A DNA stretch of 64,000 bases. Origin: Phycisphaerae bacterium (lineage in GTDB: Bacteria; Planctomycetota; Phycisphaerae; UBA1845; Fen-1342). Positions 4,952 to 56,575 of this stretch are shown here, piece by piece. Each line of letters starts with the position of its first letter. Position 1 is the first letter of the stretch. The stretch is from NCBI GenBank assembly GCA_050115495.1, contig JASFQK010000014.1:1-64000 (forward strand). The letters run 5' to 3'. The translations under genes were made by a program, and so were the position numbers. The notes beneath the pieces are model-generated. The model made no database searches and was not told where the DNA came from. It worked only from the letters and a program-made list of their open reading frames with translations.

Positions 4952-7424
4952 GGTTTCAGTCTCCCGGTTGTTGGCAGTTAGTGCCCGGGTACGCACCCGG
5001 GCCACGTCCGAAGATTCGCCTTCGGACCCACACGCAGGTCACGCACTCTGCACCGGCTGCTTCGCCGCTGCCGGCCCTTCGCCAGGCTCATGCCTTGGCG
5101 ACCGACAGTGACGCCGGTGTACGTGGCCTTGGCCACGGCGCCCCAGCGAACGCCGCTGCCCCGTCGGCGGGATGCCCCTACGGTGTCTCTCGCCGACCTA
5201 CCTGGCAAACGTCTTACCACCTCCTTTCGTACGCAATGCAGCTTCTCGTTTGTGGCCATGGCAGTTTCACGAATGGCGGCCGTCGCCGCTTCGGGACGTC
5301 CAATCCGCCATCCCGTCATGTCGAGCCCGCAGCCTGCGGTCCACGGCAACGACGCGGCCACCGTGGCCTCACCCCACGCTGCGCGTCGGGATTCCCGCCA
5401 CCAATTGAGCACACCGACGGTCACCGCGCCGGCCTTGTCTGCGGTACGCGGCTGCCCGCATTCCCACGGCGAGTTCCTACAGCCACCGCCCGTCGTCCGA
5501 ACGCAGCATCCCACGCCCGCCCCCCTGCCCCCCGCAGCACGTACAACCCGACCACGACGCGCTCGCTCATTACCTGCACTCGACACCATATGCGTGTGCC
5601 TGACACCCATCCCATGCTACACGTCCACGTGAAGCACTCGTGCATGTTCAGGTGAATAATGCGTCATACCACTATTTCACCCAGCAGCGCCGCGCGGCGC
5701 TGCGCGGGCGGTTGCTGAGTGTTGCTGTGGTCTTTCTTGTAGTCATCATGGTCAGACGGCCGCCGCCTTGCAGCATACTCAACAGCTCCATTCGCAACGT
5801 CGCACGTCTGCCCATCGTCGCTCCGATTGAACTCCCAAAGGCCCGGGCAGCGAGTGGCGCTGCCCGGGCCCTGTGTGAGGGAGGAGGAGGAAGGAAGTGC
5901 TGGTCGGGTAATGCACGTGGCGTGCCGGGAGCGCCTCCAGTTCCCGCATCTTCTGCAACCCCTTGTACCGCAGCGCGATACGCGCATTCACCGCGTAGCA
6001 TGCCTGCGCGTCGTCGGCGTTCCACCGCGCCGCCGCGGCGCAGCGCGGCGCGCACGACACGAGGCCGCGACAGCAGTGCCGGCTTCTGCGGCAGCATGCG
6101 GAACGGCCCGATGTCAGCCGGGGGAGGACGCCGCGCCACCAGGCTGTGCCGTAGCATCGTGCTGTATCGCCAGATGCGTGGGCGGATCTTTGGTGCCCAA
6201 CACGCTTGGGCAGGCATGTGTGAACAAGTGATGAATTCGGCGCTACTTCGCGAACACGAACGGCCCACGCGGTCCGTGCTGTGGCGAGGAGCAGGGACCG
6301 GAGCGTCCGTAGCGCGGCAGTCCGTGGTGGATGTGCGCCTGTTTCAGCCGCGTGCCCGACAACGGTAGCGCGCGTGGCAAGAGGCTCTTGCAACAGCAGT
6401 TACGCGGTCTGCGGATGAGCTGAGCCATCGCCGCGAAACAACGGCGTGCTGCGCGCGGCGCCGCGCGCGACAGTTCGCTGCATACCCGCGCGACAACGGT
6501 CGCCAGGCGCGTTCAGCGCGGTACGCGGACAACGCAGGATGCGCGTGTGCTTGACCTAGGCAATCGTATCTTCCTACAACCGGATGTGCTGATCTTTGTC
6601 CTGACGGCAGCCCGGGGCTGTAGGGAACGGGAGGAGTGTTTGCATGTGCTCGCCATCTCCATCCGTCGAAAGTCGCTGCGGTGATACGCGCACAGCGTCC
6701 CGGACATGCATGGCCGCACGCTCCATTGCCGCACGGCGCGGCGTCCGTGCGGCTGGCGTACGAACAAAACAGGTATGGCTTCTTCGCGCAACCTTCAGAG
6801 AGTGTTGCTTGCGACGGCGCGCGGCGACGGCGCGACAGCATGCGAAATGACGGCGCCGACGAGCGGGCCGAGCGCTAAGTCGCTGCGCCATCACACGTTG
6901 CTCGGCAGATGCCGAAGGGACGCAAGCCCTGGCATGGCAGTTGCTGTAGCAGTCGTACGCTTCCCCCGCGCGGTTGCTTCGATGGTCATACGGGTCGCAT
7001 GCGATTGTGCTCTCCGGACCACGAGTCGTGGCTCCGGTTGACGGGACGTGCCGCGGTGTTGCTGTACCTTCGTTCGCATGAGTGCGACGTTATCGATGTC
7101 GTGCGGCTCCCTGGTGCGCAACGAGATGCAGCCACCCGCGGTGGCGGCCCGATTGCGAAATAGCGCAAGCGAGGCGCTGAGTAGTGCGGGATTGTGGCGG
7201 GCGCACCGCAGTGTGCCCGTCGGTGAGGAAAGTGGACAACACGTGCAGCCTGATGGCCGTGCAATATGTGGACTGAGGACAGAAGCTTCTCGATGTGGCA
7301 AGCAGAGCACGGCGCGTTGGCAACGTGACTGTTAGGACGGGAGATCGAGTAGCGTAATCTCGACCCGGGTACTTTCAGGTCGTAGGGTAGAAACCCTGAG
7401 CAAGCACAGGAAAGGACACGAAAC

Positions 7425-8081
7425 ATGAAGAAGGGACTGACGATTCTGGCAGTGCTGGCCCTGGCCAGCAGTGCATTTGCCGATGTCATCACGGTTACGC
7501 CGTACGAGGGCACGGTCACTGACGACGTGCTGCCGCAGCTCTACTACGAGTTCACACGCGTCAGTGCCGATGCCGAGTACTCGACGTGGCAGGTCAACGT
7601 GACCGGCGACCTCGACTGGACCAACGGCCGTCTGTCGAACATGGCCGATACGCCGGCGACCCCTGGCGTCACCGGCCCGGGCATCCCCGTGTACGATCCC
7701 GGCGACCAGCCGTTCGGTTACTGGGCCAATGGTTCGTTCGGCGGCAACGGCACGTTCTTCGGCGACCCGACCGGTGACTTCATGAGCACCGCCGGCTCGC
7801 CGGTGTGGCCGACCACGCCCGGTCAAGGGGACATCTCCCTGAGCTATTTCCACACGTCGACGGACGACACCGATCTGAATCAGGTCTTGACGGCCCAGCT
7901 CATGTTCCCGAACGAGTACACGGGTAACGTCTACATCGCCCAGTACTTCGGTGCGAACAAGCTGTCGAACGAGTGGGAAATCGGGTACTCCGAGGCCATG
8001 GGCGGCCACTACCTGGTGCCCGAGCCCAGCGCGCTGTCGCTGCTGGTGCTGGGTGCCTTCGCTGCCCTCCGCCGCCGCTAG
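7425..8081 (+). CDS. PEP-CTERM sorting domain protein
   Basis: Signal peptide; C-terminal VPEPSALSLLVLGAFAALRRR; AAGGA RBS. Confidence 0.92.
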   Translation: MKKGLTILAVLALASSAFADVITVTPYEGTVTDDVLPQLYYEFTRVSADAEYSTWQVNVTGDLDWTNGRLSNMADTPATPGVTGPGIPVYDPGDQPFGYWANGSFGGNGTFFGDPTGDFMSTAGSPVWPTTPGQGDISLSYFHTSTDDTDLNQVLTAQLMFPNEYTGNVYIAQYFGANKLSNEWEIGYSEAMGGHYLVPEPSALSLLVLGAFAALRRR

Positions 8082-8190
8082 GACCTGTGCGTAGGTTGAG
8101 TGCCCCACCCTGGAACGTCCAGATGAGCTCCGAAACGCCGCGTAACACTCCGCCGAGCGGCAAAGGCGAACGGGAGCGGCCGATGGCAAG

Positions 8191-8622
8191 TCACACGTCC
8201 AGCTCTCCGTGAGGCGCTCTTCCAGCGTGCAGCGCTTTGGATGAATACTTGAGAGGCGGGTCGAAAGGCCCGCCTCTTCTTCGTTGACGTACGGGTCCAG
8301 CGGGTCTCGCGCGGGGCGAGATGGGCCGTGATGCGTGGGCGTACAAGCCACCGTCCTCCTGTGAAGCCAGATCGGTGACGCGGCGCTTTGCGAGCCCGTC
8401 CGCAGGACGCGCTGGGCGTGTACAGTCTGGCGCCTGACAGCCGGCCCGTTCCCACTCGACGAGCAGCCGGGCGTACGCGGCCCGACTTTCGGCTGTCCCG
8501 TACGGTCCGAGCCAGTAGTCCCGCCGGCGGCCGGTGTCCCAGTCCCGAAGCGTTACGACGGCAATTTCACGGCCGCGGACCAAGCGTTTGCGGTGGGCGG
8601 GCGGCGTGGATTGACGGGGCAT
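8191..8622 (-). pseudogene. N-terminal remnant of a second tyrosine integrase (older element at the same tRNA site)
   Basis: MPRQSTPPAHRKRLVRGREIAVVTLRD..GRRRDYWLGPYGTAESRAAYARLLVEWE matches the N-terminus typical of planctomycete integrases (AVVTL..RDYYLGPYGS..S...Y.RL..EW). No catalytic domain follows. Confidence 0.7.
8252..8283 (+). terminator. Probable intrinsic terminator hairpin
   Basis: AGAGGCGGGTC-GAAA-GGCCCGCCTCT followed by TCTTCGTT, downstream of the PEP-CTERM gene. Confidence 0.5.
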
Positions 8623-8725
8623 TGCGCGGTCCTTTGCACGCTCCGCGCAATTGGCCTTGCTTTGCCACGCTCTGCCGCAAGGAGAGGTAAGCACAGGTCG
8701 CGCTTTCAGCGTGAATTACATCAAT

Positions 8726-8746
8726 TGGGCGGCACAGGACCCGAAC
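8726..8746. repeat. att direct repeat (copy of the tRNA-Val 3' end), left boundary of the integrated element
   Basis: TGGGCGGCACAGGACCCGAAC versus TGGGCGGCACAGGACTCGAAC at 20991-21011 (20/21 identical). Confidence 0.9.
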
Positions 8747-9690
8747 ACGTCTACCGATTCCGCGGGAAAAGGGCAAGCGGCGAGCACAGGCGCAGCAAAA
8801 AGCGCAGCAGAATCCGGCGGTTCGCCCGCCGGAACGGCTCCCGAGAACCCGCCCCGGGCCCCCGCCGACGCTGCTGGCGAGCCGGCCGCCGGGCCCATCG
8901 CCGACGAGACCGGCCAGCCCGCCCACGAGGCCGCCCCCGGGCCGGCGGGGACGAGCTTCACCGCGGCCCTGGACATGCTAGCCCGGCTCCCGCTGTCCGA
9001 CGCCGAACGGGCCGAAGCCGTCCGGCGGCTGCTGGCCGGGGTGGCGGCCCGCCAGCCGGAGTAGGCCGCCGACCGATCCCGAAGCCCCCGCAAACCGCCC
9101 ACAACCAACCCCCGCGACGCCACAACCGCCGCACGAGATAGCCGTCCCTGCCCAGAATCGACCCGTGGACGGACCTTCTCGCCGTCGGCTGTACCCCACG
9201 TCGGGTCGAACGCCGATCGGCGATTCTGCGCCCCCTAGTCCGTGTTCTCGACACACCGTGCGGGCGACCTGCGCAGTACCAGCGGAACCGCCCAAGGGGG
9301 CCCCACGAGCCGGCGGAAACGTCGCCAGCCCCCCGTCGCGCAGCCGGCCGGAACACGCACTTATCCCCTTCCTCGGACGCACCCCTCGCCGATTTCGGCG
9401 GTCCGGTCGGGCACGGGGGTTTGTATACTGGAGTTGCTCCCGGAAGCCGACGGGGCGGCGCAGGCGAGCCAGACCGTTCGGGGCACGCCGGACAAGGCAT
9501 ATCGAGGCGCACGCGGAGAGGTAAGCCACGTGTGGCTGGAACGTCAAGCGAAGCGGAAGGGGCTGACCGTGAAAGCCGCGGCGTCAAGCTGCGTGGTCCT
9601 GGTGGGTCCGGCGTCTGCGTGGCCCCTTGTTCTGATGGTCTTTGAGAACCCATCATTCACTGAGCCGTTCGACTTGAGTTTCAGTTGAGA

Positions 9691-10860
9691 TCAGCTCTCA
9701 TCCTCGAAGTCCTGTGGATGAATGTGTTCGCTGTGCCGCGTGACGCCCGCTGCGAAGAAGCCCCCGCATCGCGTGCGCACAGCACACTCAGCACAGATCG
9801 GTAGGTACTCTCGCTTCCAGTCAGAGATGCTCATACAGCAATAGCGCCAGAGCTCGTGGTCGAGCGTGCACAACTGGTGATTGTATATGACAACGCGCAT
9901 TCGTCTCTGAGTTAAGTACTCTACGGCGTCCCGCAGTGTCCGGCGATAGTCGTACGGGTCGACCCACAGCAGATCGAGATTGCGTCTCGCTAGACCGATC
10001 GACTCCATTCCCATCATTGCAACCTGCCGAACGAACGGCATGTTCCGAGCAATGAACTCGGCGATGCCCAACAGGCGGTTGACGTTGAGGTTGTGAATGA
10101 CAACGCGCACCTCAACATCAATACCGCAGCGTCTGAGATTCACTATGCCGCGCACGGTCTGGTAGAAAGCCCCGCAGCGCTGCGCGATCCAGTCATGCTG
10201 ATGCACGAGATCTGAATGCAGCGGCACTCCAACCACAAGATCCGGGTGCCGAATCGCGCCGAGGGCTCGCGCCAGGCTGAGATAGGCGAACATGCGCCCG
10301 TTCGACAAGACGTGTAGCGCGGTCTCCGGGAGAAACGCCTTCGAGGCTCTCACAATCGACAGCATGCCCTCTGGCTCTAGGGTCGGCTCCCCGCCGGTGA
10401 CTCCCAATGCAGCGGTCTCGCGATCGATCAGCGGAATCAACCGAAGACACTCTTCGATGCACCCGCCTTCATCGTTAACCTTGGGCGGCTGCGAGCACAT
10501 CAGACACCCGCAGTTGCAGCGATTCGTTAGGAAGAGCGCGTTATGCTGGGAGTTCCTTCGGTACAGGACGCGGATACGTCCGGTGGTCGGCGAGAAGTGC
10601 ACGACGTCCCCGTCCCTCAAGTACTGCAGCGCCCCGGGCACACTTACGACGGACAGCCCGGTCTCCGTGTCAGTTGCCGTCGAGTCGGGTCCCGGGCGGA
10701 AGTAGCAAAGGAAGCCCGGTGGAACATCGCTGTCACCTGGACTCATCCAGTACCCGTGACGTGCGCGGAGCGCCCGCGGCAGATGAGCATTCTCAGAGAG
10801 CCGAACGAGGATGTCTGGCCCCGACCAACGCGTCGGAGACGAAGCACTTAGGCTCAGCAC
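9691..10860 (-). CDS. hxsC: His-Xaa-Ser system radical SAM maturase HxsC
   Basis: LFLTNRCNCGCLMCSQPP (CxxxCxxC), GVTGGEPT, SISDWK and a C-terminal CAECAVRTRCGG; lies directly after hxsB. Confidence 0.9.
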   Translation of the reverse strand: MLSLSASSPTRWSGPDILVRLSENAHLPRALRARHGYWMSPGDSDVPPGFLCYFRPGPDSTATDTETGLSVVSVPGALQYLRDGDVVHFSPTTGRIRVLYRRNSQHNALFLTNRCNCGCLMCSQPPKVNDEGGCIEECLRLIPLIDRETAALGVTGGEPTLEPEGMLSIVRASKAFLPETALHVLSNGRMFAYLSLARALGAIRHPDLVVGVPLHSDLVHQHDWIAQRCGAFYQTVRGIVNLRRCGIDVEVRVVIHNLNVNRLLGIAEFIARNMPFVRQVAMMGMESIGLARRNLDLLWVDPYDYRRTLRDAVEYLTQRRMRVVIYNHQLCTLDHELWRYCCMSISDWKREYLPICAECAVRTRCGGFFAAGVTRHSEHIHPQDFEDES

Positions 10861-10880
10861 ATTCGTTCCTCAACACCTTC

Positions 10881-12344
10881 CTACGCCCAACTGCGCAGAA
10901 TCCGGCCACACTCGGAATCGTCTTCGAGCAGTCGCACGAGGTGCTTCATTACACCCATGTTCCGCTGACAGAACTCGCTGGTAGGCTTATAACCGACGTA
11001 GTCCCCTTGCAAGCGATAGTGTTTGACCGGGTCTGCTCCACAGAACGCCTGGAAAGCGCAGCGCTCGCAGCCGGGCACTCCCACAGTCATGGTTGAATCC
11101 AGCATCGCCAAGAGCCGATCATTGAGCATCAGGGCCTCATATGTGTCCCCTACGACGCTGCCCAGGCGGAAGTGCCGGTCGCCCATCTCGGCGAGCATCC
11201 GAGCCTCGTCCGACAGGTAGACCCCGCCATCGTAGTTGTATACCAAGACGCCGATGCCAATACCGGCCGGCGAGCGCAGGTCTACGAATCCAGTCTCGAA
11301 CGGCGTGAGCATCTTCCGGAGAATAATGGCGGAAAAGTCCTCTCGGAATCGTACACCGCGGTTGTTCACGTCGAAGATGTAGGCGAGAGTGTCCTTGTAG
11401 AAGCTCAACCACTCGTCGACTGAGTACTCGTAGGCGTCATTCCGTTCGACAGCACGGCCGTAGGGATTGATAGGACGAAGGAAGACGGAGCGAAACCCCT
11501 GGCGAAGGTACTCGTCGATGATATCTGGGCCGCGAGACAGACTGCCCCGGGTGGTGGTCATCAAAGCTGAGACGCGGTCTGGCCCTAGGGCCGCCCGTGC
11601 CCGTGAGATTCCTTGAATTGTTGAATCGTAGCTATCCCCCCGCAGAAAGTGGCGGTGCTGGTTGTGTAGGTCGCGCGGCCCGTCCAGAGACGTAGAGATG
11701 CACACATCATGTAGCTGACAGAATTCGAGCATGTCGTCGGTCAGCGGGGACAGGTTCGTGCATATGACGAAGTCGACGCTGCGATGTTCGTATGCCGGAT
11801 GGTCCTTGACCTTGTGAACGATGTGTTTAACGAGGTCAAAGCGCAACAGTGGCTCGCCTCCCTGAAACTCGACCTTCAAGTACGGAGACGGGCTACGGAA
11901 CATGAAATCGACGCTCGCATCCGCGACCTCGCCACTCATGTCGTAGGCGCAGAGATCCTCGGTTTGCTGAGAGACTTGGCAGTAGCTGCAACCGTGCGTA
12001 CAGCGAAGCGTCGGTACGAAGATATGGAGCCCCGTGAAATCTGCGAACACGGCATGCTTCGTCCGGACTTGAGTCGAGAGCAGGTCGATTGCCGTTGAGG
12101 CAGAATCGTCGATCAGAAAATGGCGAGCCTTCAAGTGCTCGTAGATGGGCGAGCGGTGGTCAACGCGGTGCCTGATGAGGCTGTGAAGCAGATCGGTCGG
12201 AGCAACCACATGCTCACCAGCCACATTTGTTAATATGTAGCGGTCTTTGTCGAGCTTCGTGAAGTCGAATGGAAGCAGTTGGTATCCCCTGCCGTCAGTT
12301 GGGCGGAATCGGTCAGCATCGAGCAAGGGCGATTGAGCGGACAT
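10881..12344 (-). CDS. hxsB: His-Xaa-Ser system radical SAM/SPASM maturase HxsB
   Basis: YQLLPF N-terminus, LHIFVPTLRCTHGCSYCQVS, EFQGGEP, VDLRSPAG, SDEARML and C-terminal CERCAFQAFCGADPV. Confidence 0.92.
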   Translation of the reverse strand: MSAQSPLLDADRFRPTDGRGYQLLPFDFTKLDKDRYILTNVAGEHVVAPTDLLHSLIRHRVDHRSPIYEHLKARHFLIDDSASTAIDLLSTQVRTKHAVFADFTGLHIFVPTLRCTHGCSYCQVSQQTEDLCAYDMSGEVADASVDFMFRSPSPYLKVEFQGGEPLLRFDLVKHIVHKVKDHPAYEHRSVDFVICTNLSPLTDDMLEFCQLHDVCISTSLDGPRDLHNQHRHFLRGDSYDSTIQGISRARAALGPDRVSALMTTTRGSLSRGPDIIDEYLRQGFRSVFLRPINPYGRAVERNDAYEYSVDEWLSFYKDTLAYIFDVNNRGVRFREDFSAIILRKMLTPFETGFVDLRSPAGIGIGVLVYNYDGGVYLSDEARMLAEMGDRHFRLGSVVGDTYEALMLNDRLLAMLDSTMTVGVPGCERCAFQAFCGADPVKHYRLQGDYVGYKPTSEFCQRNMGVMKHLVRLLEDDSECGRILRSWA

Positions 12345-12429
12345 TGAGCTTGCCCTACGAGAACTAGTCTGCGCGGCGCCAGAATACGTCGCTCGGCAGT
12401 CGACGGCGTCGCGGCCGCGCGAAGCGGGG

Positions 12430-12822
12430 TCAGGCGGTCGGCTCCGATATTCCGTGCGGATCGTCTCGATAGTCGGCGGAGTCGAGTCCGTTGTCGACTA
12501 GCGACGTCTTGGAGAACGCGTTTGCGAGTATGAGGCTTCGCAGCGAGCGTGTTTCATCGGCAACGACTTCGCGCAGCTCGTAATCCAGCGCTACATTGCA
12601 GAATTCCTCTGCTGCCAACGCGGGATCGGTCAAAGTGCCCTTCGGTCGGAGCAGAGCGCGGATTGTGTTTTCCCCAGCGGGCTCCAGCAGGACGTAGAAG
12701 CGCCCGCCGAAGGCGTAGGCCGCCTTCTTTACTGCAAGCTCTCTATAGAGGGACGTGCTCAGTCGGAGGCACAGCCCGGCTTCGGTTGCCTGAACAATCT
12801 CACAGCCAGTCGGCACCGTCAT
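12430..12822 (-). CDS. hxsD: His-Xaa-Ser system protein HxsD
   Basis: LYRELAVKKAAY...EEFCNVALDYELREVVADETRSLRSLILANAFS pattern, positioned between the precursor and hxsB. Confidence 0.85.
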   Translation of the reverse strand: MTVPTGCEIVQATEAGLCLRLSTSLYRELAVKKAAYAFGGRFYVLLEPAGENTIRALLRPKGTLTDPALAAEEFCNVALDYELREVVADETRSLRSLILANAFSKTSLVDNGLDSADYRDDPHGISEPTA

Positions 12823-12833
12823 ACCAAACGGGC

Positions 12834-13166
12834 CTAGCCTGAGTAATGAGACCTGTGCGAGCTGTGACTTGAGTGGCTTTGATGGCTGCTGTGAGACGAA
12901 TGGCTTTGATGAGAACCGTGGTTCGCATGGTTGAACTGCGTATCGTCTCCAGCGGGCGGCTGTAGCACCAACGGCGCCGGCGTCGCATGGTCGACTACGC
13001 CCTGAGCCACCCTCGTCATCTGAGCCTTGGCTTTGTCGAGTGCCGTTTGCGCGAGCGATCCCGCCGAGGCGCTAGTTGTCCCAAGCAACGCAGCTACGGC
13101 AACCGCAACCGTTGCCAGTCCTCGAACGAAGCCACCGTGGCCCTCATGCTTCGCGTCATCGCCCAT
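12834..13166 (-). CDS. hxsA: His-Xaa-Ser repeat precursor peptide HxsA (110 aa)
   Basis: AAGGAG RBS 7 nt before ATG 13166; hydrophobic leader; C-terminal HAN plus nine H-x-S triplets (HGS HQS HSS HSS HQS HSS HSS HRS HYS) and G. Confidence 0.92.
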   Translation of the reverse strand: MGDDAKHEGHGGFVRGLATVAVAVAALLGTTSASAGSLAQTALDKAKAQMTRVAQGVVDHATPAPLVLQPPAGDDTQFNHANHGSHQSHSSHSSHQSHSSHSSHRSHYSG

Positions 13167-13559
13167 CACGCATCTCCTTCTGACCGCCCGCCCGGGCACG
13201 GGGCCCCAGCCCGATATCGTCAAATCGATGTGCCCCATAAAAGTATTAAATACCATTAAGGCCTGACACTGTCAAGGCGGGACTTGACATCTCTGCCCGC
13301 GGCCGGCTTGGCGGATGATTGCATGGACATGCCGGTAACATCTGGTCGCAGAACAACTTACCGTTCCGCTTCCTCAAGACGCACTCTGTCGGGACGCAAA
13401 GGGACAGGAGTTGGTCTGACGCACGGCGCCGGCCGGAGCGTCGCTTCTTCAGGACCGAGAGCGGACCCCGGCGCGGCCCCGGGATTGCTTTACCCTGGTG
13501 GCAGCAACAGGATGAGGCAGCCGGCGAACACCCGCTCTGACGCAGGGGCGCGGCGGCCG

Positions 13560-13960
13560 GGGGGGATAACTCCGCCGTCGGGCGTGACGAACTCGACGTG
13601 GACGGGGACGAGTGCCTCACGGAGCTACTGCCGATCGACCTGGACGGCAACGCCCGGTTCTGTGACGACCCAGGGACGCCGGACACGGGGTACGGCGGGG
13701 CACCAATCATCGACATGGGTGCCTACGAGTACGGTGCGTGCCCGCCACCGGGGGACGAACTGTGCCCATTGCCCGGCGACCTGAATTGCGACGGGGTCGT
13801 GGACAACTTCGACATCAGCCCGTTCGTGCTGGCCCTGACCAACCCGGCCGGCTACGCGGCGGCCTACCCGGACTGCACGCCCGCCAACGCAGACATCAAC
13901 GCCGACAGCATGGTGAACAACTTCGACATCTCGCCGTTCGTGGCGTTGCTGACGGACTAA
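13560..13960 (+). pseudogene. C-terminal fragment of a secreted protein (choice-of-anchor-Q-like motif plus dockerin-like domain)
   Basis: GDNSAV...[26 protein letters not shown] followed by [21 protein letters not shown]...[21 protein letters not shown]; no signal peptide or N-terminal body. Confidence 0.7.
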
Positions 13961-14416
13961 CCACCGAAGAAACCAACCGAGCGGCGCCGGCGGCCGACAT
14001 CCGCGCGCCAGCATGCCCGAGAAGGCCGTTTTTCGGCTCGCTGAGCGACCATCTCGCCTTCGGCTGTACGCCGGGGCGGGCCCAGCTTACCTGACGGCCT
14101 TGCCAGACCCCGACCCCGCCGATATGCGCCCACAAGCCGGCGGGGACCGCACGAGGCACATCCTGGCAGCCGGCGCGCCCCCGGCGAGACAACCCTGCGC
14201 TGGAGGGCCCCTTTAGCGCAGGGCCGCGGCGGTTTGATTTCGGACCCAAAAGGTATAGGGCGCGACGGCGGACGTTCCGGGGAGAACATTTGTACGCGCA
14301 GATGGGATGATTCACCTTTTGGGTCTTTTGGGGGTGACAATTGACCCGGCACGATTGGTACTTGACCGTCAGACATGTTGTGGCATGCTTGAGGTAGCGG
14401 GGTCACGAGCTGGCAT

Positions 14417-15397
14417 GTGAACACCTGGTTCACGATCCGGCCCACTGGCCCCGAAGCGAAAGGACATGCACACATGAGTCCCCTGGATGTCCTCGAACGG
14501 CAGGAAGGCGTTGCCGTCCGTGTCGATGAGCTGGTTCGCGATCGGCACATAATGGACTATTTCCGCCGACAAATCCGTCAATGGAGGGCGGAAGTTGACG
14601 CACGCGCGGCGGAGTATTGTGAGCCGGTCACCGACGCAGACGAGACTGCCCGGCCCAAGTGGATGCGCGGTAAGTCCGGGTATCAGAATTACGTTGCGAT
14701 AGAGCGTGATGGTGATCCGTATCGACGCTGCATGCGCGACCCGCTCAACCCATTGTCGATCCAGGCTATGACGCCTGCGGAGAAGTGTGCTTGGCTGGCG
14801 GCGGTCCACGATGTCCGTTGCTACGTGGAGGTGGAGCGCATCGACCCGTGGCACGACTGGGAAGACGACCGTGATTACGGGAGGTCGGACCGGCATTACG
14901 CCTGCCTGTGTGGGTGGGTCGAGGACTTGACTGTGTGGACGGAAACAGACTGCGATCGAATCGAAAGCATCCTGTGCGATGTGCAGGCTGATATCGCCAC
15001 CGCCATGCAGAAGGGCCCCGGGGCGGATAAGAAGAGTAGCGGTCCGGCGGAGGAGGCGAGCGAAGCCGACGCACCGAAGATCCCTGACCGTGCCTTGAAG
15101 GCTTGGCAGCAGTACGAGGAAGGTCTCCGACTGCTGGACGGGCATGTCGAGAAGCCAACGGACCAGCAGGTGTACAGAACGCTTGAGAGCAAGTACAGGT
15201 TGACGGACGAGGTTGGGAATCTGCTGCCATTCGAAAGATGGACCCGATACCTGAGGACATACCGCAGCCTGACGGGCCAGCAGAAGAACAAGCCGCGGGC
15301 TGGACGTGAGCAACCCGTCGGGTCGTGCGTCCGTTACGACCAAGTGGACGCAAAGGAACTGCCTACTCGCATTCGGCGCAAATCGGCCGACGAATAG
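14417..15397 (+). CDS. Hypothetical protein of the integrative element (possible C-terminal DNA-binding region)
   Basis: 326-aa ORF with protein-like composition upstream of alpA; no family recognised; start uncertain (14417 or 14474). Confidence 0.6.
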   Translation: MNTWFTIRPTGPEAKGHAHMSPLDVLERQEGVAVRVDELVRDRHIMDYFRRQIRQWRAEVDARAAEYCEPVTDADETARPKWMRGKSGYQNYVAIERDGDPYRRCMRDPLNPLSIQAMTPAEKCAWLAAVHDVRCYVEVERIDPWHDWEDDRDYGRSDRHYACLCGWVEDLTVWTETDCDRIESILCDVQADIATAMQKGPGADKKSSGPAEEASEADAPKIPDRALKAWQQYEEGLRLLDGHVEKPTDQQVYRTLESKYRLTDEVGNLLPFERWTRYLRTYRSLTGQQKNKPRAGREQPVGSCVRYDQVDAKELPTRIRRKSADE

Positions 15398-15603
15398 CGG
15401 AAGCAAAGCGGAAGGGAAACCGGAAATCTGAATTTCCGGTTTTGGCACGCATGGCCTGTAGCTGGCCGCAGGGGGCGTTTCCCATTGCGCATGGACGGAA
15501 ATCCTGGGGGTCCCACGCTTCCGGTTTGCGTAAAGGGTGTGGCGTGTGTGGTCAGCGGGTTCGACCTGCGGGCACGCCCGGCGACGACCAGGAGCATAGT
15601 GGA

Positions 15604-15855
15604 ATGACGAGACACACAGAAGTTGCGGGCGAGCCAATCGGTGGAGTGGCCGTGACACCGGAGCTGTTGGACGTTCACGACGTGGCCGCGGTGCTCGGTT
15701 GCAGCACACGTAGCGTCTGCCGGCTGGCCGGGGCCGGCAAGCTACCGTCGCCCGTCAAGTTGGGCCGGTTGAGCCGCTGGCGACGAGCCGAGTTGCTCAC
15801 CTGGCTTGCCGAAGGCTGCCCCGCGATGCACGCGGCGAAGGCTGGCGGTCGATGA
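15604..15855 (+). CDS. AlpA/excisionase-like HTH DNA-binding protein
   Basis: LLDVHDVAAVLGCSTRSVCRLAGAGKLPSPVKLGRLSRWRRAELLTWL; stop overlaps the primase start (ATGA). Confidence 0.85.
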   Translation: MTRHTEVAGEPIGGVAVTPELLDVHDVAAVLGCSTRSVCRLAGAGKLPSPVKLGRLSRWRRAELLTWLAEGCPAMHAAKAGGR

Positions 15856-17996
15856 CGCCAGTTGAGACGGTCCTGGCCCGGCTGCCCGACGCTAGGCGTG
15901 CCGGCGACGGCTGGCAGGCAAGATGCCCAGCGCACAATGACCGGCGGCCGAGCTTGACGGTCTCCGAGGGTGAAGACGGGCGCGCGCTGCTGCATTGTCA
16001 CGCTGGCTGCACGCCCCAGGCAATCGTCGCGGCACTCGGCCTGACGCTCGCGGACCTGATGGCCCCGGCGTCACAGTCACCGGTACCCGCGTCGCGAGGG
16101 AGCAGCGGGGGAAATGGTAACCGGAGCACCCGACAGACCTTCGGCACCGCTGAGCATGCTGTAGCCGAGCTGGAGCGGCGACACGGCCCATGCTGCGCGC
16201 GATGGCACTACCACAACGCAATGGGCGATGTCGTGGGTATGGTGCTTCGGTGGGACACGCCACACGGCAAGGACATTCGGCCCGTCGCGCGCGTCGGCGA
16301 CGGTTGGATCATCGGTGGCATGCCAAAGCCACGACCGCTGCTCAACCTGCCGGAGTTGCAAGGCCGACCTGATGAACGAGTCTACGTCACTGAGGGCGAG
16401 CCGGCGGCCGACGCTATCCGGTCGCTCGGGCTATTGGTCACGACTTCCGCCGGTGGATCGGCGGCGCCGAGGATGACCGATTGGAGCGCGCTACGTGGCC
16501 GACGGATCGTCCTGTTGCCGGACGCCGACGATGCCGGCTGCAAGTACGCGACGGAAGTCGTTCGCATCCTGGCGGCGTTGCAGCCGCGACCCGAGGTGCG
16601 CGTTGTCGAGCTGCCTGGCTTGCCGCCCAAGGGCGACGCCGTTCAGTTCGTCGGGGCGAGAGACGGTCGGCCACGTGACGGGATCATCGCGGAGCTTGAC
16701 AACCTAATCGCCGCGGTCGAGCCAGTAGTGTTCGAGCCCGTCATCCACGGAACCGCCCCCGTGTTGCGGCGTCTCTCTGACGTGCGTCCCGAGCCCGTGC
16801 AGTGGCTCTGGCCCGGGCGAGTCGCACGCGGCAAGTTAACGTTGCTGGTGGGCGACCCGGGTTTGGGTAAGAGCTTCCTCACGCTGGACATGGCGGCCCG
16901 CGTTTCGCGTGGCACACTTTGGCCGGATGGAACCACCGGGTGTTCTGGGGACGTGGTGTTGCTTTCGGCCGAAGACGATCTCGCGGACACAATCCGTCCG
17001 CGGTTGGACGCGGCCGGCGCGGACGTGGCGCGCATCGTGGCGCTTCAGGCGGTGCGCACACCCGCCCCCGATACAGGTGGAACGCGTGATGTGCCATTCA
17101 ACCTATCGGCCGATCTGGTCGCACTTGAGGCCACCGTCGCCGAGGTCGGTGAGTGCAAGCTCATCATCATCGACCCCATCAGCGCCTACATGGGCGGCGG
17201 CCCGCGTTTTGATTCGCACCGCAACACGGACGTTCGGGCAGTCCTCGGCCCGCTGGCCGATCTCGCTGGTCGGCACCGCGTCGCCGTGGTCGCGGTGACA
17301 CACCTGCGGAAGTCCGACGGCCCGGCTCTCTATCGCGCTATGGGCTCCCTCGCGTTTGTGGCGGCGGCCCGGGCGGCGTGGGCGGTGGTCCAGGACAAGG
17401 ACGATGCGACGAACCGCCGGCGGCTATTCCTGCCCGTGAAGAGCAACCTCGCGGCCGAAGCAACCGGCTTGGCGTTCCAGGTTGAGCCCCGCACACCGGG
17501 GGAGGCGCCGTGCGTGGCGTGGGACCCTGAGCCGGTGACGGTCTCGGCGGACGAGGCCCTCGCCGGCCGGCCGACCAAGGGCGGCGGTGGCGCCGTCGAA
17601 GAGGCGGTTGCATGGCTGGAGGATGCACTAGCAGAAGGTCCAGAGCCAGCAGCAGATATTAAGGCGCGGTCAAGAGCTGACGGCATCAGCCCCCGGACGC
17701 TGGACCGGGCGAAGGCCGAGTTGAATGTCGTGGCAGCCCCCGACGGTTTCCGCGGGCCGTGGGTCTGGCGCTTACCCAAAGAGGGCCCGGCCGCTCAGAG
17801 TGCGCCAACCGCGCCAGAGTACGCCAAGCTCAATGCCTTGGCGCACTCTGAGGATCTTGGCGCACTGTGGCCACCAGACGAGGCGGATTCATCGTCCGGA
17901 GGTAGTGACCAGACCGGCTGCCCCGCCGGCGAGCAGACGCCGGCCGCCGTCCTGGCGAGTTACCCCGAGGCCGACGAAGGGTGGGGCGAATTATGA
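15852..17996 (+). CDS. Primase-helicase (zinc-binding + Toprim + RepA/AAA_25-type helicase)
   Basis: CPAHNDRRPSL..CHAGC zinc motif; Toprim VTEGE..D and LPDADDAG; Walker A GDPGLGKS; LLSAEDD; IIIDPISAY; VTHLRK. Confidence 0.9.
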   Translation: MTPVETVLARLPDARRAGDGWQARCPAHNDRRPSLTVSEGEDGRALLHCHAGCTPQAIVAALGLTLADLMAPASQSPVPASRGSSGGNGNRSTRQTFGTAEHAVAELERRHGPCCARWHYHNAMGDVVGMVLRWDTPHGKDIRPVARVGDGWIIGGMPKPRPLLNLPELQGRPDERVYVTEGEPAADAIRSLGLLVTTSAGGSAAPRMTDWSALRGRRIVLLPDADDAGCKYATEVVRILAALQPRPEVRVVELPGLPPKGDAVQFVGARDGRPRDGIIAELDNLIAAVEPVVFEPVIHGTAPVLRRLSDVRPEPVQWLWPGRVARGKLTLLVGDPGLGKSFLTLDMAARVSRGTLWPDGTTGCSGDVVLLSAEDDLADTIRPRLDAAGADVARIVALQAVRTPAPDTGGTRDVPFNLSADLVALEATVAEVGECKLIIIDPISAYMGGGPRFDSHRNTDVRAVLGPLADLAGRHRVAVVAVTHLRKSDGPALYRAMGSLAFVAAARAAWAVVQDKDDATNRRRLFLPVKSNLAAEATGLAFQVEPRTPGEAPCVAWDPEPVTVSADEALAGRPTKGGGGAVEEAVAWLEDALAEGPEPAADIKARSRADGISPRTLDRAKAELNVVAAPDGFRGPWVWRLPKEGPAAQSAPTAPEYAKLNALAHSEDLGALWPPDEADSSSGGSDQTGCPAGEQTPAAVLASYPEADEGWGEL
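17796..17869. promoter_or_regulatory. Candidate replication origin: four 13-bp iterons inside the primase 3' region
   Basis: CAGAGTGCGCCAA (17796) and CAGAGTACGCCAA (17815), then inverted TTGGCGCACTCTG (17838) and TTGGCGCACTGTG (17857). Confidence 0.65.
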
Positions 17997-18349
17997 GTGC
18001 CACGTTAATCCTCGCCGAGCTACAGGAGCGTCATATCGAGCTACGGGTCCACGGCGACCGCCTGCGGTATCGGCCCCGGTGCGCGATGACGCCGGACTTG
18101 GCTGAGCAAGTGAAGGCCCACAAGGCGGAACTCCTGCGGTTGCTTCGGCAAACCGACACGCCCCACGAGCTGTCCCTCGCCGAGCGTGTCGAAACTGGCT
18201 ACGTCAATCCGGGCTGGCAGCCGGCGGCATGGGCGGAGCGCCTGCGCCAACTCGCCGACGCCTGCGAGAAGATGCACCCGGACACGGCAACGCGGTACCG
18301 AGCGTGGGCGGCGAACGTCACAAGGGGCACGGCGCACAGGACAAGATGA
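17993..18349 (+). CDS. Small protein with TubC-N-docking-like N-terminus, often found downstream of such primases
   Basis: MSATLILAELQERHIELRVHGDRLRYRP...LAEQVKAHKAELLRLL; ATGA coupling to the primase. Confidence 0.7.
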   Translation: MSATLILAELQERHIELRVHGDRLRYRPRCAMTPDLAEQVKAHKAELLRLLRQTDTPHELSLAERVETGYVNPGWQPAAWAERLRQLADACEKMHPDTATRYRAWAANVTRGTAHRTR

Positions 18350-18450
18350 CATGGACCGCCGAGGACCCGGCGCCGCCCGCCGTCGAGAACGCGCAGGCTC
18401 GTGGTCTGCCGCTGGCCGGGGGTCCGCGGCCGACCTGATTCGGGCTGAAG

Positions 18451-18479
18451 TTGACAACCTGTCGGACATGTGCAATACT
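18451..18479 (+). promoter_or_regulatory. Sigma70-like promoter, probably leaderless, for the HTH gene
   Basis: TTGACA-17 nt-AATACT with TG extension; ATG at 18486 lies 7 nt after the -10; the spacer holds the imperfect palindrome ACCTGTCGGACATGT. Confidence 0.55.
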
Positions 18480-18485
18480 TATTGC

Positions 18486-18689
18486 ATGACACGCAAACAA
18501 CAGCCCACGATGACGAAGCTCTTGCGGGAGGCGCTGGCCGAGGCTGAATCGCTTATCGCGGTTCAGCGGGCAACCGGCGTCAAGCGGCAGAGCCTCGCGA
18601 AATTCGTCCGGGGCGAGCAATCGCTCCGGTTGGACATGGCCGACAAACTGGCGGTGTACTTCGGCATCGTCGTAAGGCGTGGTGATTAG
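18486..18689 (+). CDS. XRE/Cro-like HTH transcriptional regulator
   Basis: LLREALAEAESLIAVQRATGVKRQSLAKFVRGEQSLRLDMADKLAVYFGI. Confidence 0.8.
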   Translation: MTRKQQPTMTKLLREALAEAESLIAVQRATGVKRQSLAKFVRGEQSLRLDMADKLAVYFGIVVRRGD

Positions 18690-18706
18690 AACACGGGAGA
18701 GGACCT

Positions 18707-19600
18707 ATGTGTGCGCTTGAACGCGACAACTTGGACGAGCGGCTCGGCCGCATTGAATCTCAGAACCGCTGGCTGCGCGGGGGCCTTGCGGCAACGTGGC
18801 TGGCAATCGTGCTGGTCTGCGTCGCGGGGCAGTCCAGACCGGCGCAGTCTGGCCCCGCCGCGTCGATCGAAGCGCAGCGGTTTGTTCTCGTGGGACCCGA
18901 TGGGAAGACGCGCGCTGTGTTGGGGTTCGAGAAAGCGCTCCTGTTGAATCTAGGTGCAGGCAACCTCGGCGCGAAAGTCCCCGGATTATTCTTGTATGAC
19001 TCCGAGGGCAATAACGTTGCACATATCGCAGTCGGTCAGCATGTGGGCCAAGAAGTGCCCGGGGTGTGCCTTTTTGCCCACGGCGGCGAGAAGAGACACT
19101 TCACGTACACGCTGCTTCAGGCCGGTGACGACGGACAGCTCGACATCTCCAACGGCGAGAGGGACATATCACTTAACACAGGCAACCCCGGCGGGCCCGT
19201 GCTGACCATGAGGCGCGAATCCGGCCAATTCGACTGTGTGACATTGGGGGCTCTGGACACCGGGGAAATCGGACTGCGACTGTGCGCTCCGGACAGAGTA
19301 CCGCGGAAGACAGTGAAGTTCGCCGACCACGAGGATATGGAGCTTCCGGTAGATGCCCTGGCGAGTGCCGAGGACATGGCGCGCTACACACAAGCTCTCC
19401 GCGTCGCCGAGCGCCTTCGCATGTTTGTCACGGACCAAGGGGCTGCGGGAATTCACTTGAAGGACGACAAAGGGCAACTGCGCACGGGCATCGGTTGTGT
19501 TGATCTGGTGAGTGAGCGCACGGGAATGACCCAACAGCAACCGCCGTCGTCGTTGACCCTGTTCGGCACAGACGGCGCGGTGCTCTGGAGGGTGCCGTGA
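18707..19600 (+). CDS. Hypothetical membrane-anchored beta-rich protein
   Basis: N-terminal coiled coil (LDERLGRIESQNRWLR) plus TM, then IEAQRFVLVGPDGKTRAVLG and C-terminal LFGTDGAVLWRVP; GGAGAGG RBS. Confidence 0.75.
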   Translation: MCALERDNLDERLGRIESQNRWLRGGLAATWLAIVLVCVAGQSRPAQSGPAASIEAQRFVLVGPDGKTRAVLGFEKALLLNLGAGNLGAKVPGLFLYDSEGNNVAHIAVGQHVGQEVPGVCLFAHGGEKRHFTYTLLQAGDDGQLDISNGERDISLNTGNPGGPVLTMRRESGQFDCVTLGALDTGEIGLRLCAPDRVPRKTVKFADHEDMELPVDALASAEDMARYTQALRVAERLRMFVTDQGAAGIHLKDDKGQLRTGIGCVDLVSERTGMTQQQPPSSLTLFGTDGAVLWRVP

Positions 19601-19706
19601 CGATGGACGCGGGCCGTACTTCCGGTTCCTGGCCGGCTTGGCCCGAAAAGCCGAGGGGCGATGAATGCATGCTCGGGCAGCAATCCGGCAGCAGAGAAGG
19701 TGACTT

Positions 19707-21053
19707 ATGGCAGCGCTCGTGACCTACGGCGGTGGTCTGCGGCGGATCGAATTCTCGATGACACCGAACGGCCGGCGGCGGGTGATTCGGCTCGGCCGGA
19801 TGAACGCGAAGACGGCGAAGAGCTTCCATGCCCATATCGAGACCATGATCGGCGACCTGCTCGCCAACCGCGCCCACGACGCCGATACCGCGGCGTGGCT
19901 CGGCGGACTCGACGAGGCGGTTCTCCGCAAGCTGCGGGCCGTGGGGCTCGCCGACGGCGTGGGGTTGTCGCGGACCACGCTGGGGGCGTTCCTGGAGCGA
20001 TGCTTCGCCACCATGAGCATGAAGGCATCGACGAAGACGTTCTACGGCCACACCCGCCGCAACCTGGAAGAGCACTTCGGCAAGGCCCGACCGCTGCGGG
20101 AAATCTCGGCGGCCGACGCCGATGCGTGGCGGGCGTGGCTCGTCGAGCATGAGGGGCTTTCGGCCGCCACCGTCGCCCGCCGCGTCATCGCGGCCCGCAC
20201 GATCTGGCGGACAGCGGTTCGCTGGAAGCTTGCCGCAGAGAACCCCTTCGACGGCGTAAAGGGTGGGCACCAGCAGAACGAGAGCCGCAAGCGGTTCATC
20301 CCGCAGGCGGATATCGACCGGCTGCTGGCCGAGACGCCGGACGCTGAATGGCACGTCATCATCGCCCTGGCCCGCTACGGCGGTCTGCGGACGCCAAGCG
20401 AGACGTTCGCCCTGCGCTGGGGGGATATCAACTGGGAGCGGGCGACCGTGCACGTGACCTGCCCGAAGCTCGCCCACCGGGAGAACCACGCTTCGCGCAT
20501 CATCCCGCTGTTCCCGGAGTTGCGGGAGCCGCTGCTGGCGCTGTTCGACGAGGCCGAGCCGGGGACGGAGTACGTCATCGTCCGCAACCGGCTGGGGTGT
20601 GCCAACCTGCGGACGCAATTCGAGCGGATCATCAAGCGGGCGGGGCTGACCGCGTGGCCCCGGCTGTTCCACAACCTGCGGGCGAGCCGGGAGAGCGAGC
20701 TTATGCGGGAGTACGATCTGGCGACGGTCTGCCGCTGGATCGGCAACTCGCCGGCGGTGGCGGCCCAGCATTACGCCACGAGCATCGACCTGGACGCGGA
20801 CTTCCGCCGGGCGGCCGGACTGGAGCCGGCGGAGGCGCAGCAGAAAGCGCAGCAAAAGGCGCAGCAGCCACGATCCGCCGGGAGTTTTCAGGACGAGCCA
20901 GAAGAGCCGGCGGAGTGCAGCAACCCCAGTGAAAACGGTGCTTCTGGCGCCCCCTGTCCAGTAATGGCTATTTCGGACAAAGATATCGGATGGGCGGCAC
21001 AGGACTCGAACCTGCGACCTTCTCGGTGTAAGCGAGACGCTCTAGCCAATTGA
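19707..21053 (+). CDS. int: Tyrosine recombinase/integrase; reading frame runs through the att site and antisense into the tRNA
   Basis: Catalytic motifs GGLRTPSE (R), FHNLR (HxxR), WIGNS and QHY (Y); adjacent to the tRNA att site. Confidence 0.92.
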   Translation: MAALVTYGGGLRRIEFSMTPNGRRRVIRLGRMNAKTAKSFHAHIETMIGDLLANRAHDADTAAWLGGLDEAVLRKLRAVGLADGVGLSRTTLGAFLERCFATMSMKASTKTFYGHTRRNLEEHFGKARPLREISAADADAWRAWLVEHEGLSAATVARRVIAARTIWRTAVRWKLAAENPFDGVKGGHQQNESRKRFIPQADIDRLLAETPDAEWHVIIALARYGGLRTPSETFALRWGDINWERATVHVTCPKLAHRENHASRIIPLFPELREPLLALFDEAEPGTEYVIVRNRLGCANLRTQFERIIKRAGLTAWPRLFHNLRASRESELMREYDLATVCRWIGNSPAVAAQHYATSIDLDADFRRAAGLEPAEAQQKAQQKAQQPRSAGSFQDEPEEPAECSNPSENGASGAPCPVMAISDKDIGWAAQDSNLRPSRCKRDALAN

Positions 21054-21064
21054 GCTAGCCGCCC
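20991..21064 (-). tRNA. tRNA-Val (anticodon TAC), CCA not encoded
   Basis: Reverse complement GGGCGGCTAGCTCAATTGGCTAGAGCGTCTCGCTTACACCGAGAAGGTCGCAGGTTCGAGTCCTGTGCCGCCCA folds as a cloverleaf with anticodon arm TCTCG-CTTACAC-CGAGA. Confidence 0.95.
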
Positions 21065-21541
21065 AAACCGCCGACGAGCAGCGGCCTCGCCAGCGTATGC
21101 ATCATACGCGCCTGTCGGCGTCGGGAAAACCGCCGACGAGCATTCCCAACCGCCTTATCGGCCGCCCGCCCGGCCCGCAGCACACAACCGTAACTCCCGC
21201 CCCATAACAGCTTTCCGGACGTTCAGCCCCTTCATTTTTGTCAACTCGGACGCCCAAACACGTCCTATTCCAGGAACTTCGCGTTACCTCTCCCGATTTC
21301 CCACAATGCATTTGAATTCGCCCCATCCCTGGCCTATGACTTCTGTGAGAGACGGTTGTTGCAGTCCGCCAGATGGGACCCGTGCATTCGTGTTGCCGGG
21401 CGCCGAACGTCTCCCTTCCTGGCGGCGAACCGATTCCATCACTTGAGGGTGCGCCTACCCGGTGTCCGCAGTGATCGCCGCACGCGGACCGGGCCCGGGG
21501 AACGTGCACGCTCGCAGACGGACGGGCAGAGGAGCCAAAGT

Positions 21542-22309
21542 ATGCGTAGTCTGATCACTACTATCGCGATTCTCCTGACGTGTTCCGTGGCGGCGCAGGC
21601 TGATCTTCTCTGGGACAACTACTTACCCGGCGGCCAAAGCTACCTGGGTGAGGAAGGTCCCGGCTTCGACGGCCTGAGTGTCAAGAGTTCTGAGCGCAAC
21701 ACGCGCATTGACGACTCCTGGACCGGCGACGACGCCTTCTTCACCGACATGGTCGAGCTCCAACAGATCAAGTGGATCGGTGCTCTCGCCGCCGAGGCCG
21801 GCTCAGAGTTCACCGCCGCCGACGTGATCATTTTCGAGGCCCCCGGCCAGTTCCCGATCGACCCCGACAATCTCGGCAGCCTGATCAAGTACCAGGCGTC
21901 GAACCTGCCCGTGAACATGGACATGGGCGTCTGGGAGCAGTTCGACGGCAACTGGCGGCACATGTACGAGGGCGCGGTCGACGTGCCGGACGTCCAGCTC
22001 GAGGCCGGCCATTACTTCATCGCCGTGCGCCTGGTCGGCAACTACTACGGCCAGAACTACATCGCCACTACCGGCAACGGCTCGACGCACTCCGAGTTTT
22101 ACCCGGACACGCCGACCGACTCGATGGGCGTGTTCCAGAGCTACTCGTTCCTGTACCCGCCCTACGAGCCGCAGTGGGTGTTGGTCGACGAGGTGCCCGG
22201 CACGGCGCCCAGCGACTACGCCTATCAGATTTACGGCAACATCGTCCCCGAGCCGGCCAGCATCGGCCTGTTGGCCCTGGGTCTCGTGGCCCTGCTCCGG
22301 CGACGCTAG
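21542..22309 (+). CDS. PEP-CTERM sorting domain protein
   Basis: AGGAG RBS, signal peptide MRSLITTIAILLTCSVAAQA, C-terminal VPEPASIGLLALGLVALLRRR. Confidence 0.92.
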   Translation: MRSLITTIAILLTCSVAAQADLLWDNYLPGGQSYLGEEGPGFDGLSVKSSERNTRIDDSWTGDDAFFTDMVELQQIKWIGALAAEAGSEFTAADVIIFEAPGQFPIDPDNLGSLIKYQASNLPVNMDMGVWEQFDGNWRHMYEGAVDVPDVQLEAGHYFIAVRLVGNYYGQNYIATTGNGSTHSEFYPDTPTDSMGVFQSYSFLYPPYEPQWVLVDEVPGTAPSDYAYQIYGNIVPEPASIGLLALGLVALLRRR

Positions 22310-47671: not shown

Positions 47672-47991
47672 GGTCGTCTCTCCTGGTGGGCCAGTCGGCG
47701 GCGTGCCGCGGCCTCACACGAGAAAGGATAGCACGAGAAGATAGGAATGCTAGGATACCCGGTTGGTTTGTCGTGGGCTGGCGTGGATTGCGCTGTTCTG
47801 GCGGGGATTGGTTGGGGGGAAGGAGCAGAGGGGCAGAGGAACAAAGGAGCAAAGGGGACTGCGGTCGGGAGCGGGTTGGCGGAGGGGGCGGTTGTTGGCG
47901 ATCGACGGCCGACACGGAGGTCGGCCGCTACGTTGCGCGGCGAGCGTCGCTCGGTATTCGACGTCGGCCACGGGGGGCCGACGCTACGGGG

Positions 47992-56395: not shown

Positions 56396-56575
56396 CGTTT
56401 GTCGGCGTTCGACGTCGGCCACGGGGGGCCGACGCTACGGGGGTGTGGCATGCTGAAGCGCAGCGCCGGCATGTCTTCTGCTCGCGTCAGGGACCATATG
56501 CCGGCGCTGCGCTTCGGCATGCCACACTGATCCGACGGCTACACAATGGTGGGGATGGGCGGGTAGCATCTGGGC

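Follow-up and report, generated by a model that had tools for sequence, protein, structure and literature searches.

What becomes of an integrase whose own attachment (att) site lies within its gene when the element that carries it leaves the chromosome? This question is raised by a 64,000-nt stretch of a Phycisphaerae bacterium (Planctomycetota; assembly GCA_050115495.1, contig JASFQK010000014.1, positions 1 to 64,000), called the window below, in which an element of about 12 kb between its att copies is inserted in a tRNA-Val gene. Its tyrosine integrase gene (int) closes inside the antisense of that tRNA. Because the crossover site lies inside the 3' end of int, the circle would encode a longer integrase, 540 aa instead of 448 aa, with int joined to the reading frame at the distal end of the element. 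That distal frame ends in a conserved, predicted two-helix hairpin which follows the integrase frame in most complete relatives, and the tail that it closes is almost certainly a real, selected part of the free-form enzyme. The features concerned are these (positions in the window and strand):

19707..21053, + strand: tyrosine integrase gene in its integrated short form, 448 aa (PF00589; phrog_1; catalytic residues present)
20988..21065, - strand: intact tRNA-Val(TAC), the integration target (ARAGORN)
20991..21011, + strand: att core on the tRNA side, within int from codon 429 and at the tRNA-Val 3' end (exact identity 20991-21005)
8726..8746, + strand: distal att core, a displaced tRNA 3' fragment (exact identity 8726-8740, mismatch at 8741)
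8726..9064, + strand: 112-codon tail, which would be integrase residues 429-540 in the circle; low-complexity linker, then hairpin
8945..9052, + strand: conserved two-helix hairpin (FTAALDMLARLPLSDAERAEAVRRLLA), a few codons before the stop (AlphaFold2 prediction; conservation)

The 15-nt word shared by the two cores occurs exactly twice in the window (8726 and 20991), 12,265 bp apart, and the identity stretches to 21 nt with a single mismatch. The target is the sole Val(TAC) gene in the gene listing of the genome. The integrase ends in ...DIGWAAQDSNLRPSRCKRDALAN*, its residues 429-448 being read off the tRNA-Val antisense, and the W at the att core is codon 429. An earlier note on this DNA had placed att inside int and proposed that recombination exchanges the C-terminus; all its coordinates hold, and the exchange amounts to 112 versus 20 residues, giving the joined length of 540 aa. 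It had also noticed a frame opening at the distal att in the register of int. This frame does run for 112 codons to 9064, with no in-frame start codon between core and hairpin, but its register follows from the identity of the cores and is not evidence in itself. The identity block ends just 3' of the T-loop, as it does in many relatives; in roughly half of the complete ones identity likewise breaks off at the T-loop or ahead of it (in this comparison the L041 row is misplaced and L035 is without a loop call); strand exchange is therefore likely to fall between the T-loop and the tRNA 3' end, and the circle would read WAAQDPN. That the mismatch at 8741 is a defect was rejected, since many relatives likewise lose identity at or before this point.

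All six catalytic residues (R228, K254, H322, R325, W344 and Y356), whose roles we assume from family motifs, precede att, which lies 73 codons past the catalytic tyrosine. Because they do, the integrated form retains its active site; the catalytic domain is whole in both the short and the long form, and integration does not split the enzyme. The folded part covers approximately residues 1-389. A structural model of P0012, a homologue 67% identical to the window's integrase, matches lambda Int (E 2.3e-11, about 370 columns), has three N-terminal strands and a helix, and aligns with full-length lambda Int, so that the modelled protein shows the layout of an arm-binding tyrosine integrase with N-terminal arm-binding, core-binding and catalytic domains. 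Judged by its sequence, the locus belongs to a tail-swap class, here taken as att in int, an intact catalytic domain, and a 112-residue coded end replaced by 20 tRNA-derived residues.

The open frame by itself is at chance level; what goes beyond chance is the conservation of the terminal hairpin and the locking of its frame to the integrase in relatives. For the latter, 235 loci were gathered (window included), with 217 integrase matches in 214 of them. An antisense tRNA lies within 450 nt of 129 of the 217 matches, and the tRNA 3' end falls inside the open reading frame (ORF) in 125/129. Complete elements, defined by a distal core of at least 12 nt, number 27 among the 235 loci. A hairpin profile was trained on 10 natural long integrases, namely the 8 of 14 long candidates that pass a motif rule together with P0012 and P0085, and it scores best in the integrase frame in 26 of the 27 complete elements. 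With the window and two loci fetched for their hairpin set aside, which leaves only relatives retrieved through their integrase, the in-frame score is best in 23/24, with 19 above 10 bits and all off-frame scores at or below 0.9 bits; the relatives do keep the distal frame open, as the earlier note would have it. Of 25 placed integrases, 14, 8 and 3 fall into the three phases in which the tRNA is crossed; the tRNAs are of nine amino-acid types, and the hairpin tracks the frame each time. Among fresh hairpin loci, a T-loop-like word stands upstream in the same open frame in 21/30, versus 4.3% of random windows (L278 was excluded from this count as an indexing artefact). PF00589 matches across 33 genomes, 150 of 356 being listed, are not paired with tails by this listing. 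The tails of integrated forms measure 7-151 aa, with a median of 13 (n=122). A shared C-terminal degron in the integrated form was considered and rejected, as the short tails differ in length and ending.

For the isolated hairpin, a 40-mer, AlphaFold2 predicts helices at 2-15 and 20-37 with a mean predicted local distance difference test score (pLDDT) of 83. The P0012 model has confident integrase domains, then about 115 low-confidence residues (391-507, for the most part below 50), and its terminal helices 509-522 and 527-542 stand at pLDDT 76-84, which suggests a hairpin fold on a disordered tether. The tether varies from 59 to 129 aa, the stop comes at most 8 codons past the hairpin end in 24/26 complete elements, and the residues after the hairpin are not conserved. 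Identity by codon position is 0.69/0.81/0.47 in 26 copies of the LPL type and 0.50/0.59/0.40 in 33 copies of the W type, and the invariant Leu (CTG/TTG/TTA) and Arg (CGG/AGG) use different codon families. Because third codon positions vary most and Leu and Arg are kept across codon families, the hairpin appears to be conserved as protein; the terminal helix for which the earlier note sought conservation is thus found in relatives by both profile and codon signature.

Hairpin motif matches occur in 38 of 401 genomes of the class (the weakest rows may be chance), and profile matches in 63 of 301 genomes of the phylum and in 5,867 protein clusters; the window's own genome holds four more copies. 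Against Pfam, 57 hairpin members gave a best E of 0.004 and no family common to more than 2 members. No match was found in PHROGs or NCBIfam, the best E against PDB sequences was 0.12, and a Foldseek search with the hairpin model returned nothing at E of 0.001 or below. In the ESM Atlas the hairpin found unnamed clusters only, under 0.9, a lead at most.

Among the best 120 of 1,643 integrase homologues, most end a few residues into a tRNA-like word; two of them, P0012 (544 aa) and P0085, read on through a linker and reach the helix motif also present in the window's tail. A further eight distinct long integrases, all with the hairpin and none close to a tRNA, were found in contigs of metagenome-assembled genomes and viruses; long integrases with at least 105 residues past the catalytic domain and no tRNA nearby number 14, with the hairpin in 8. 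Two long-form loci, L140 and L155, carry terminase genes. Terminal repeats, of 69 nt in L152 and 123 nt in L154, identify these 7.4-kb contigs as assembled circles of about 7.3 kb, in which the integrase runs through a tRNA-like word and then the hairpin in one frame, so that circular long forms exist in relatives, as the earlier note implied. Single-sequence region searches for further long forms returned the query only and are too insensitive for a short motif. The L152 circle (7,355 bp) also carries a head maturation protease-like gene and a DnaB-like helicase beside its long-form integrase and is a candidate capsid-related satellite.

The DNA around the cores carries repeats on both sides:

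20835..20866, + strand: three GCGCAGCA repeats with a 12-bp period, inside int (translated AQQKAQQKAQQ); candidate arm-type sites
8790..8809, + strand: two GCGCAGCA repeats on the opposite arm, 64 nt past the core, within the tail frame; candidate arm-type sites

A repeat of 11-13-bp period is common to both arms in 13/27 complete elements, and its offset on the distal arm is about +51 to +75 in most relatives with a detected repeat. The GCGCAGCA repeats on both arms are, from this pattern, likely to be arm-type sites bound by the integrase. A scan of the distal att for promoter or terminator patterns found none.

The hairpin is not confined to one integrase family. Of 20 regions fetched downstream of hairpin matches, six contain an integrase of another family, with 513-626 codons before att and no BLAST similarity to P0001. 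The att cores of this second family mostly extend to the anticodon arm, and the hairpin is in the integrase frame in 6/6, five by script and L125 by matching peptides. The other 14 regions comprise two first-family integrases in frame, one broken integrase, and cases of insufficient length or without a clear assignment. In a quick tree with 34 rows from the first family, used solely for counting label changes, the LPL-type hairpin needs 4 changes, 3 of them forced by well-supported branches. Tentatively, and with slightly more doubt than conviction, we suggest that the hairpin is an undescribed portable regulatory module, attached by Planctomycetota elements to unrelated tyrosine integrases via the attP arm, as a phylum-wide directionality switch housed in the recombination site; it would be present only in the free form, the integrase's own reaction would remove it, tandem arrays would restore it, and integrase lineages would exchange it among themselves.

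Several individual loci deserve separate mention. G000:C29 (about 430-670 and 7267-8924) holds a complete element of the second family, in which the integrase runs into tRNA-Ser(TGA) from the 5' end of the tRNA, in sense orientation, and the distal copy leads in frame to a W-type hairpin; in the integrase frame, the tRNA 5' half reads CAA on the integrase side versus TAA on the distal side, as if altered to stay open. L001:5556-5890 (G000:C41) contains a 44-nt tRNA-Gly(TCC) fragment, arm-like repeats and an LPL-type hairpin 85% identical to that of the window. At G000:C15:114886-115020 a tRNA-Gly gene directly adjoins a short duplicate of its own 3' end, possibly a collapsed island. At G000:C15:124473-124565 (- strand) a second-family integrase ORF runs directly into a W-type hairpin, with 11-nt tRNA-Gly word remnants, and then for 90 residues; it is either a chromosomal long form or a decayed tandem junction. 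L083:1492-1741 and L116:617-869 have tandem hairpins, the LPL type followed about 130 nt on by the W type in a different frame; one module may have been replaced by another here, leaving a relic, or the second copy may be a free one.

As to what the exchange might do, papers cited here by PMC number are drawn on in excerpt. In myxophage Mx8 attP lies in int, 112 residues are replaced by 13, and the short form is less active (PMC4701971). By analogy, the 540-aa integrase of the circle with its tethered hairpin would differ from the 448-aa integrated form without it in more than length, and we think it rather likely that the hairpin serves as a self-association module and that the long form is thereby the better integrator. 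It probably mediates a protein-protein contact, and its loss quite plausibly lowers or redirects activity and so would stabilise the inserted state, as in Mx8; for self-association itself, the amphipathic pattern of a small tethered hairpin and the Mx8 analogy are what we infer from. In such a cycle the free circle would make long Int, whose hairpins would help to gather protomers on attP and to capture the tRNA target. Recombination would then remove the hairpin's coding sequence from int, leaving a short Int less able to recombine unless an excisionase-like protein is made. Excision would presumably use the short form together with the excisionase-like helix-turn-helix (HTH) protein of the element, and would restore the long form.

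A number of observations weigh against this account or soften its evidence. A frame stays open for at least 112 codons at 29% of 20,000 random genome positions, 35% of 10,000 local shuffles reach 105 codons, and the two other frames from the distal att are open for 84 and 137 codons. The motif rule behind the training set was written after the tails had been seen, with the frame set independently by each integrase. L024 fails the frame test at its 12-nt core, the hairpin being elsewhere in that locus, and four further complete elements score below 10 bits with the hairpin profile. Because the elements are related to one another, the binomial p of 7e-12 for the frame test overstates the case, and the codon sets were collected in the integrase frame, which biases pN/pS (0.41 and 0.72) downwards. 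P0074, P0119 and P0120 pass the att-like word without a hairpin, most of 75 integrase matches with a stop and no tRNA nearby have no tail, and many distant viral relatives end soon past the catalytic domain; long forms off circles could be tandem-array junctions or relics. The 20990/8726 joint is absent and depth is flat in one run with this DNA, which covered contigs only, is possibly the assembly source, and shows neither presence nor absence of the circle. Finally, the Mx8 swap is also described as altering site specificity rather than inactivating (PMC6070905), and because of this change in specificity the direction of the effect is not fixed even in Mx8.

The hairpin could also act with the opposite sign, restraining or marking free-form Int through autoinhibition or through docking of a protease or adaptor, so that re-insertion is delayed and the integrated short form is long-lived. 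Its place at the extreme C-terminus, where terminal tags act, would suit such a role, as would its long and variable tether, and integrases of some mycobacteriophages are under protease control via a C-terminal tag. We nevertheless consider it unlikely, as the residues beyond the hairpin are not conserved, the widely differing integrated tails offer no common tag, and Mx8, the one tested bacterial case in the excerpt, has the more active long form (PMC4701971). Less probable still, in our judgement, is docking to some other partner, such as the excisionase-like protein, a DNA-bending host factor, the primase-helicase or a helper-phage protein, by which free-form Int would be coupled to replication or packaging. 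A module common to two unrelated integrase families, whose LPL type needs at least 3 changes on the first-family tree, behaves as a portable docking tag would; portability is equally compatible with self-association, however, and the occurrence of the hairpin in small elements as well as in terminase-bearing phages with different gene sets argues against a single element-encoded partner.

Two further readings would sever the hairpin from the integrase or from protein altogether. It might be a small protein in its own right, with a translation start of its own close to the distal att, its fusion to the integrase being incidental. Every one of the best 150 among the 5,867 profile matches is a called protein of short length (median 73 aa, range 32-237 aa), at two loci of one genome the first hairpin is directly followed by another in a different frame, and an in-frame ATG, GTG or TTG lies between core and hairpin in 11/26 complete elements. 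Such a start is missing from the other 15, the window among them, however, and a Shine-Dalgarno-like word precedes a start in 1/26; short gene calls are also the expected annotation of a stranded half, natural fusions exist, and a free gene would not track the integrase frame through three tRNA phases, all of which makes a free peptide very improbable. Finally, the open frame could be a by-product of GC-rich DNA and of conserved att-arm signals, devoid of protein-level selection. Frames of this length are indeed frequent by chance (29-35%), and over its first 25-30 codons the frame coincides with the core and the arm repeats. The hairpin, in contrast, lies beyond the arm repeats, is followed by the stop, shifts in whole codons relative to the core, and keeps Leu and Arg across codon families while third positions vary most. 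This reading appears to be largely refuted already by the frame test, the tRNA phases and the codon signature, and we find it scarcely credible. A self-association hairpin that favours integration is the reading retained here.

The remainder of the element encodes the following:

15325..15855, + strand: ORF with AlpA/excisionase-like HTH, candidate directionality factor (PF12728 at residues 114-163; phrog_66); the true start is probably later
15852..17996, + strand: primase-helicase (zinc ribbon and AAA_25), the replication gene of the element (domain and PHROGs matches)
17981..18689, + strand: small TubC_N-like ORF and HTH_3 regulator (domain matches)
9691..13256, - strand: cargo His-Xaa-Ser system comprising HxsC, HxsB, HxsD and an HxsA-like repeat peptide (TIGR03977, TIGR03978 and TIGR03976 above cut-off)

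No capsid, terminase or tail genes were matched among the larger ORFs scanned, and no small terminase was found there. The gene set (int, AlpA-like HTH, primase-helicase, no structural genes matched) would fit a satellite resembling phage-inducible chromosomal islands (PICIs). The cargo is a complete, low-GC His-Xaa-Ser radical S-adenosylmethionine cluster (9691-13256), with a GC content of about 58-62% versus 65-70% outside; the HxsA4 model scores below cut-off on the HxsA-like repeat peptide. An ORF fragment at 13598-13960 (+ strand), which we take to be Dockerin-like, resembles a host copy near 33297-33476 and has the look of a gene end that was captured. An ORF at 8191-8694 (- strand), immediately outside the distal att, has no Pfam match; its middle presumably resembles an integrase N-terminal arm-binding segment, and it is perhaps a remnant of an older element. 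The flanking host genes 7425-8081 and 21356-22309 both end in a PEP-CTERM-like sorting motif (the first by eye, the second by Pfam). Several families of short intergenic palindromic repeats, similar to repetitive extragenic palindromes, are scattered within 28689-60265 (e.g. 47988-48074, 56440-56526 and 59997-60083). Named close homologues of the integrase come from Phycisphaerae and other Planctomycetota.

The tail swap appears to be the rule in a large planctomycete integrase family, unlike the rarity described for bacteria in the excerpt of PMC4701971. What is exchanged comes down to a hairpin of 30 residues, amenable to deletion, mutation or purification, which makes the role of a swapped tail directly testable. 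Integrases mined for genome engineering from integrated copies would be cloned as the short form. If the portable-module reading is true, what was a curiosity of Mx8 becomes a common means by which bacteria control integration, short 'hypothetical proteins' in their thousands are explained as stranded halves, and the annotated integrases of these families represent, for the most part, the truncated form.

How, then, does this system compare with those already known? No description of the integrase family or of the hairpin was found in the literature searched, with subscription journals largely outside it, and island databases may list such elements unremarked; a term look-up in excerpts of PMC12884075 and PMC8138268 returned no mention of planctomycetes. 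With lambda the element shares its best structural match (lambda Int), repeated arm-like sites around the core and an excisionase-like HTH gene. The lambda attP lies outside int; in the window's element, unlike lambda, the coding sequence takes in the core, one arm and part of the other. It resembles PICIs in its size of about 12 kb, integrase, AlpA/Xis-like HTH, primase-helicase and cargo, and differs from them in that a small terminase was not found among the ORFs scanned. The serine integrases of streptococcal integrative and conjugative elements that target rumA are alike in having att in the integrase gene, integration altering both length and C-terminus (PMC4701971); they differ in belonging to the serine family, in their protein-coding target and in that no hairpin is reported for them.

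Self-editing integrases are said to occur in 'very few integrative elements' in the excerpt of PMC4701971, and Islander gives Mx8 and SSV as the known cases (PMC4383910). The earlier note had drawn a parallel to both. The elements SSV1, pTN3 and pT26-2 do share att within the integrase gene and tRNA targets. In archaeal 'suicidal' integrases att is translated in alternate frames and the downstream frame is restored (PMC7253208), and SSV-type integrases are broken into int(N) and int(C); the catalytic domain belongs to int(C), and neither half is active (PMC7253208, PMC8371274). An SSV-type suicidal integrase was rejected for the window, where solely the tail past the catalytic domain is exchanged; with all six catalytic residues before att the enzyme is not split, and this parallel falls.

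The Mx8 parallel stands, in that attP lies in int, the catalytic domain is intact and the tail is swapped. Both systems have a tyrosine integrase, attP in the 3' part of the gene, a tRNA-type target and a whole catalytic domain, and in both a short end derived from the tRNA takes the place of about 110 residues (13 for 112 in Mx8 as excerpted, 20 for 112 in the window, family median 13); the Mx8 protein has the word GLEP about 120 residues from its end, and Mx9 is described as similar to Mx8 (PMC6070905). A tblastn search with P0012 against 50,697 phage records gave no match, the Mx8 tail reached a best domain score below 0 bits with the hairpin profile, and no structure or homologues of the Mx8 tail were found. 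Unlike Mx8, the integrase is of another lineage (hhalign probability 8%), and the layout is family-wide, persists across many tRNA targets in three phases, and has a module common to a second family. To judge from these comparisons, the system behaves like Mx8 in its layout, appears not to be of Mx8 lineage, and is not of the SSV type.

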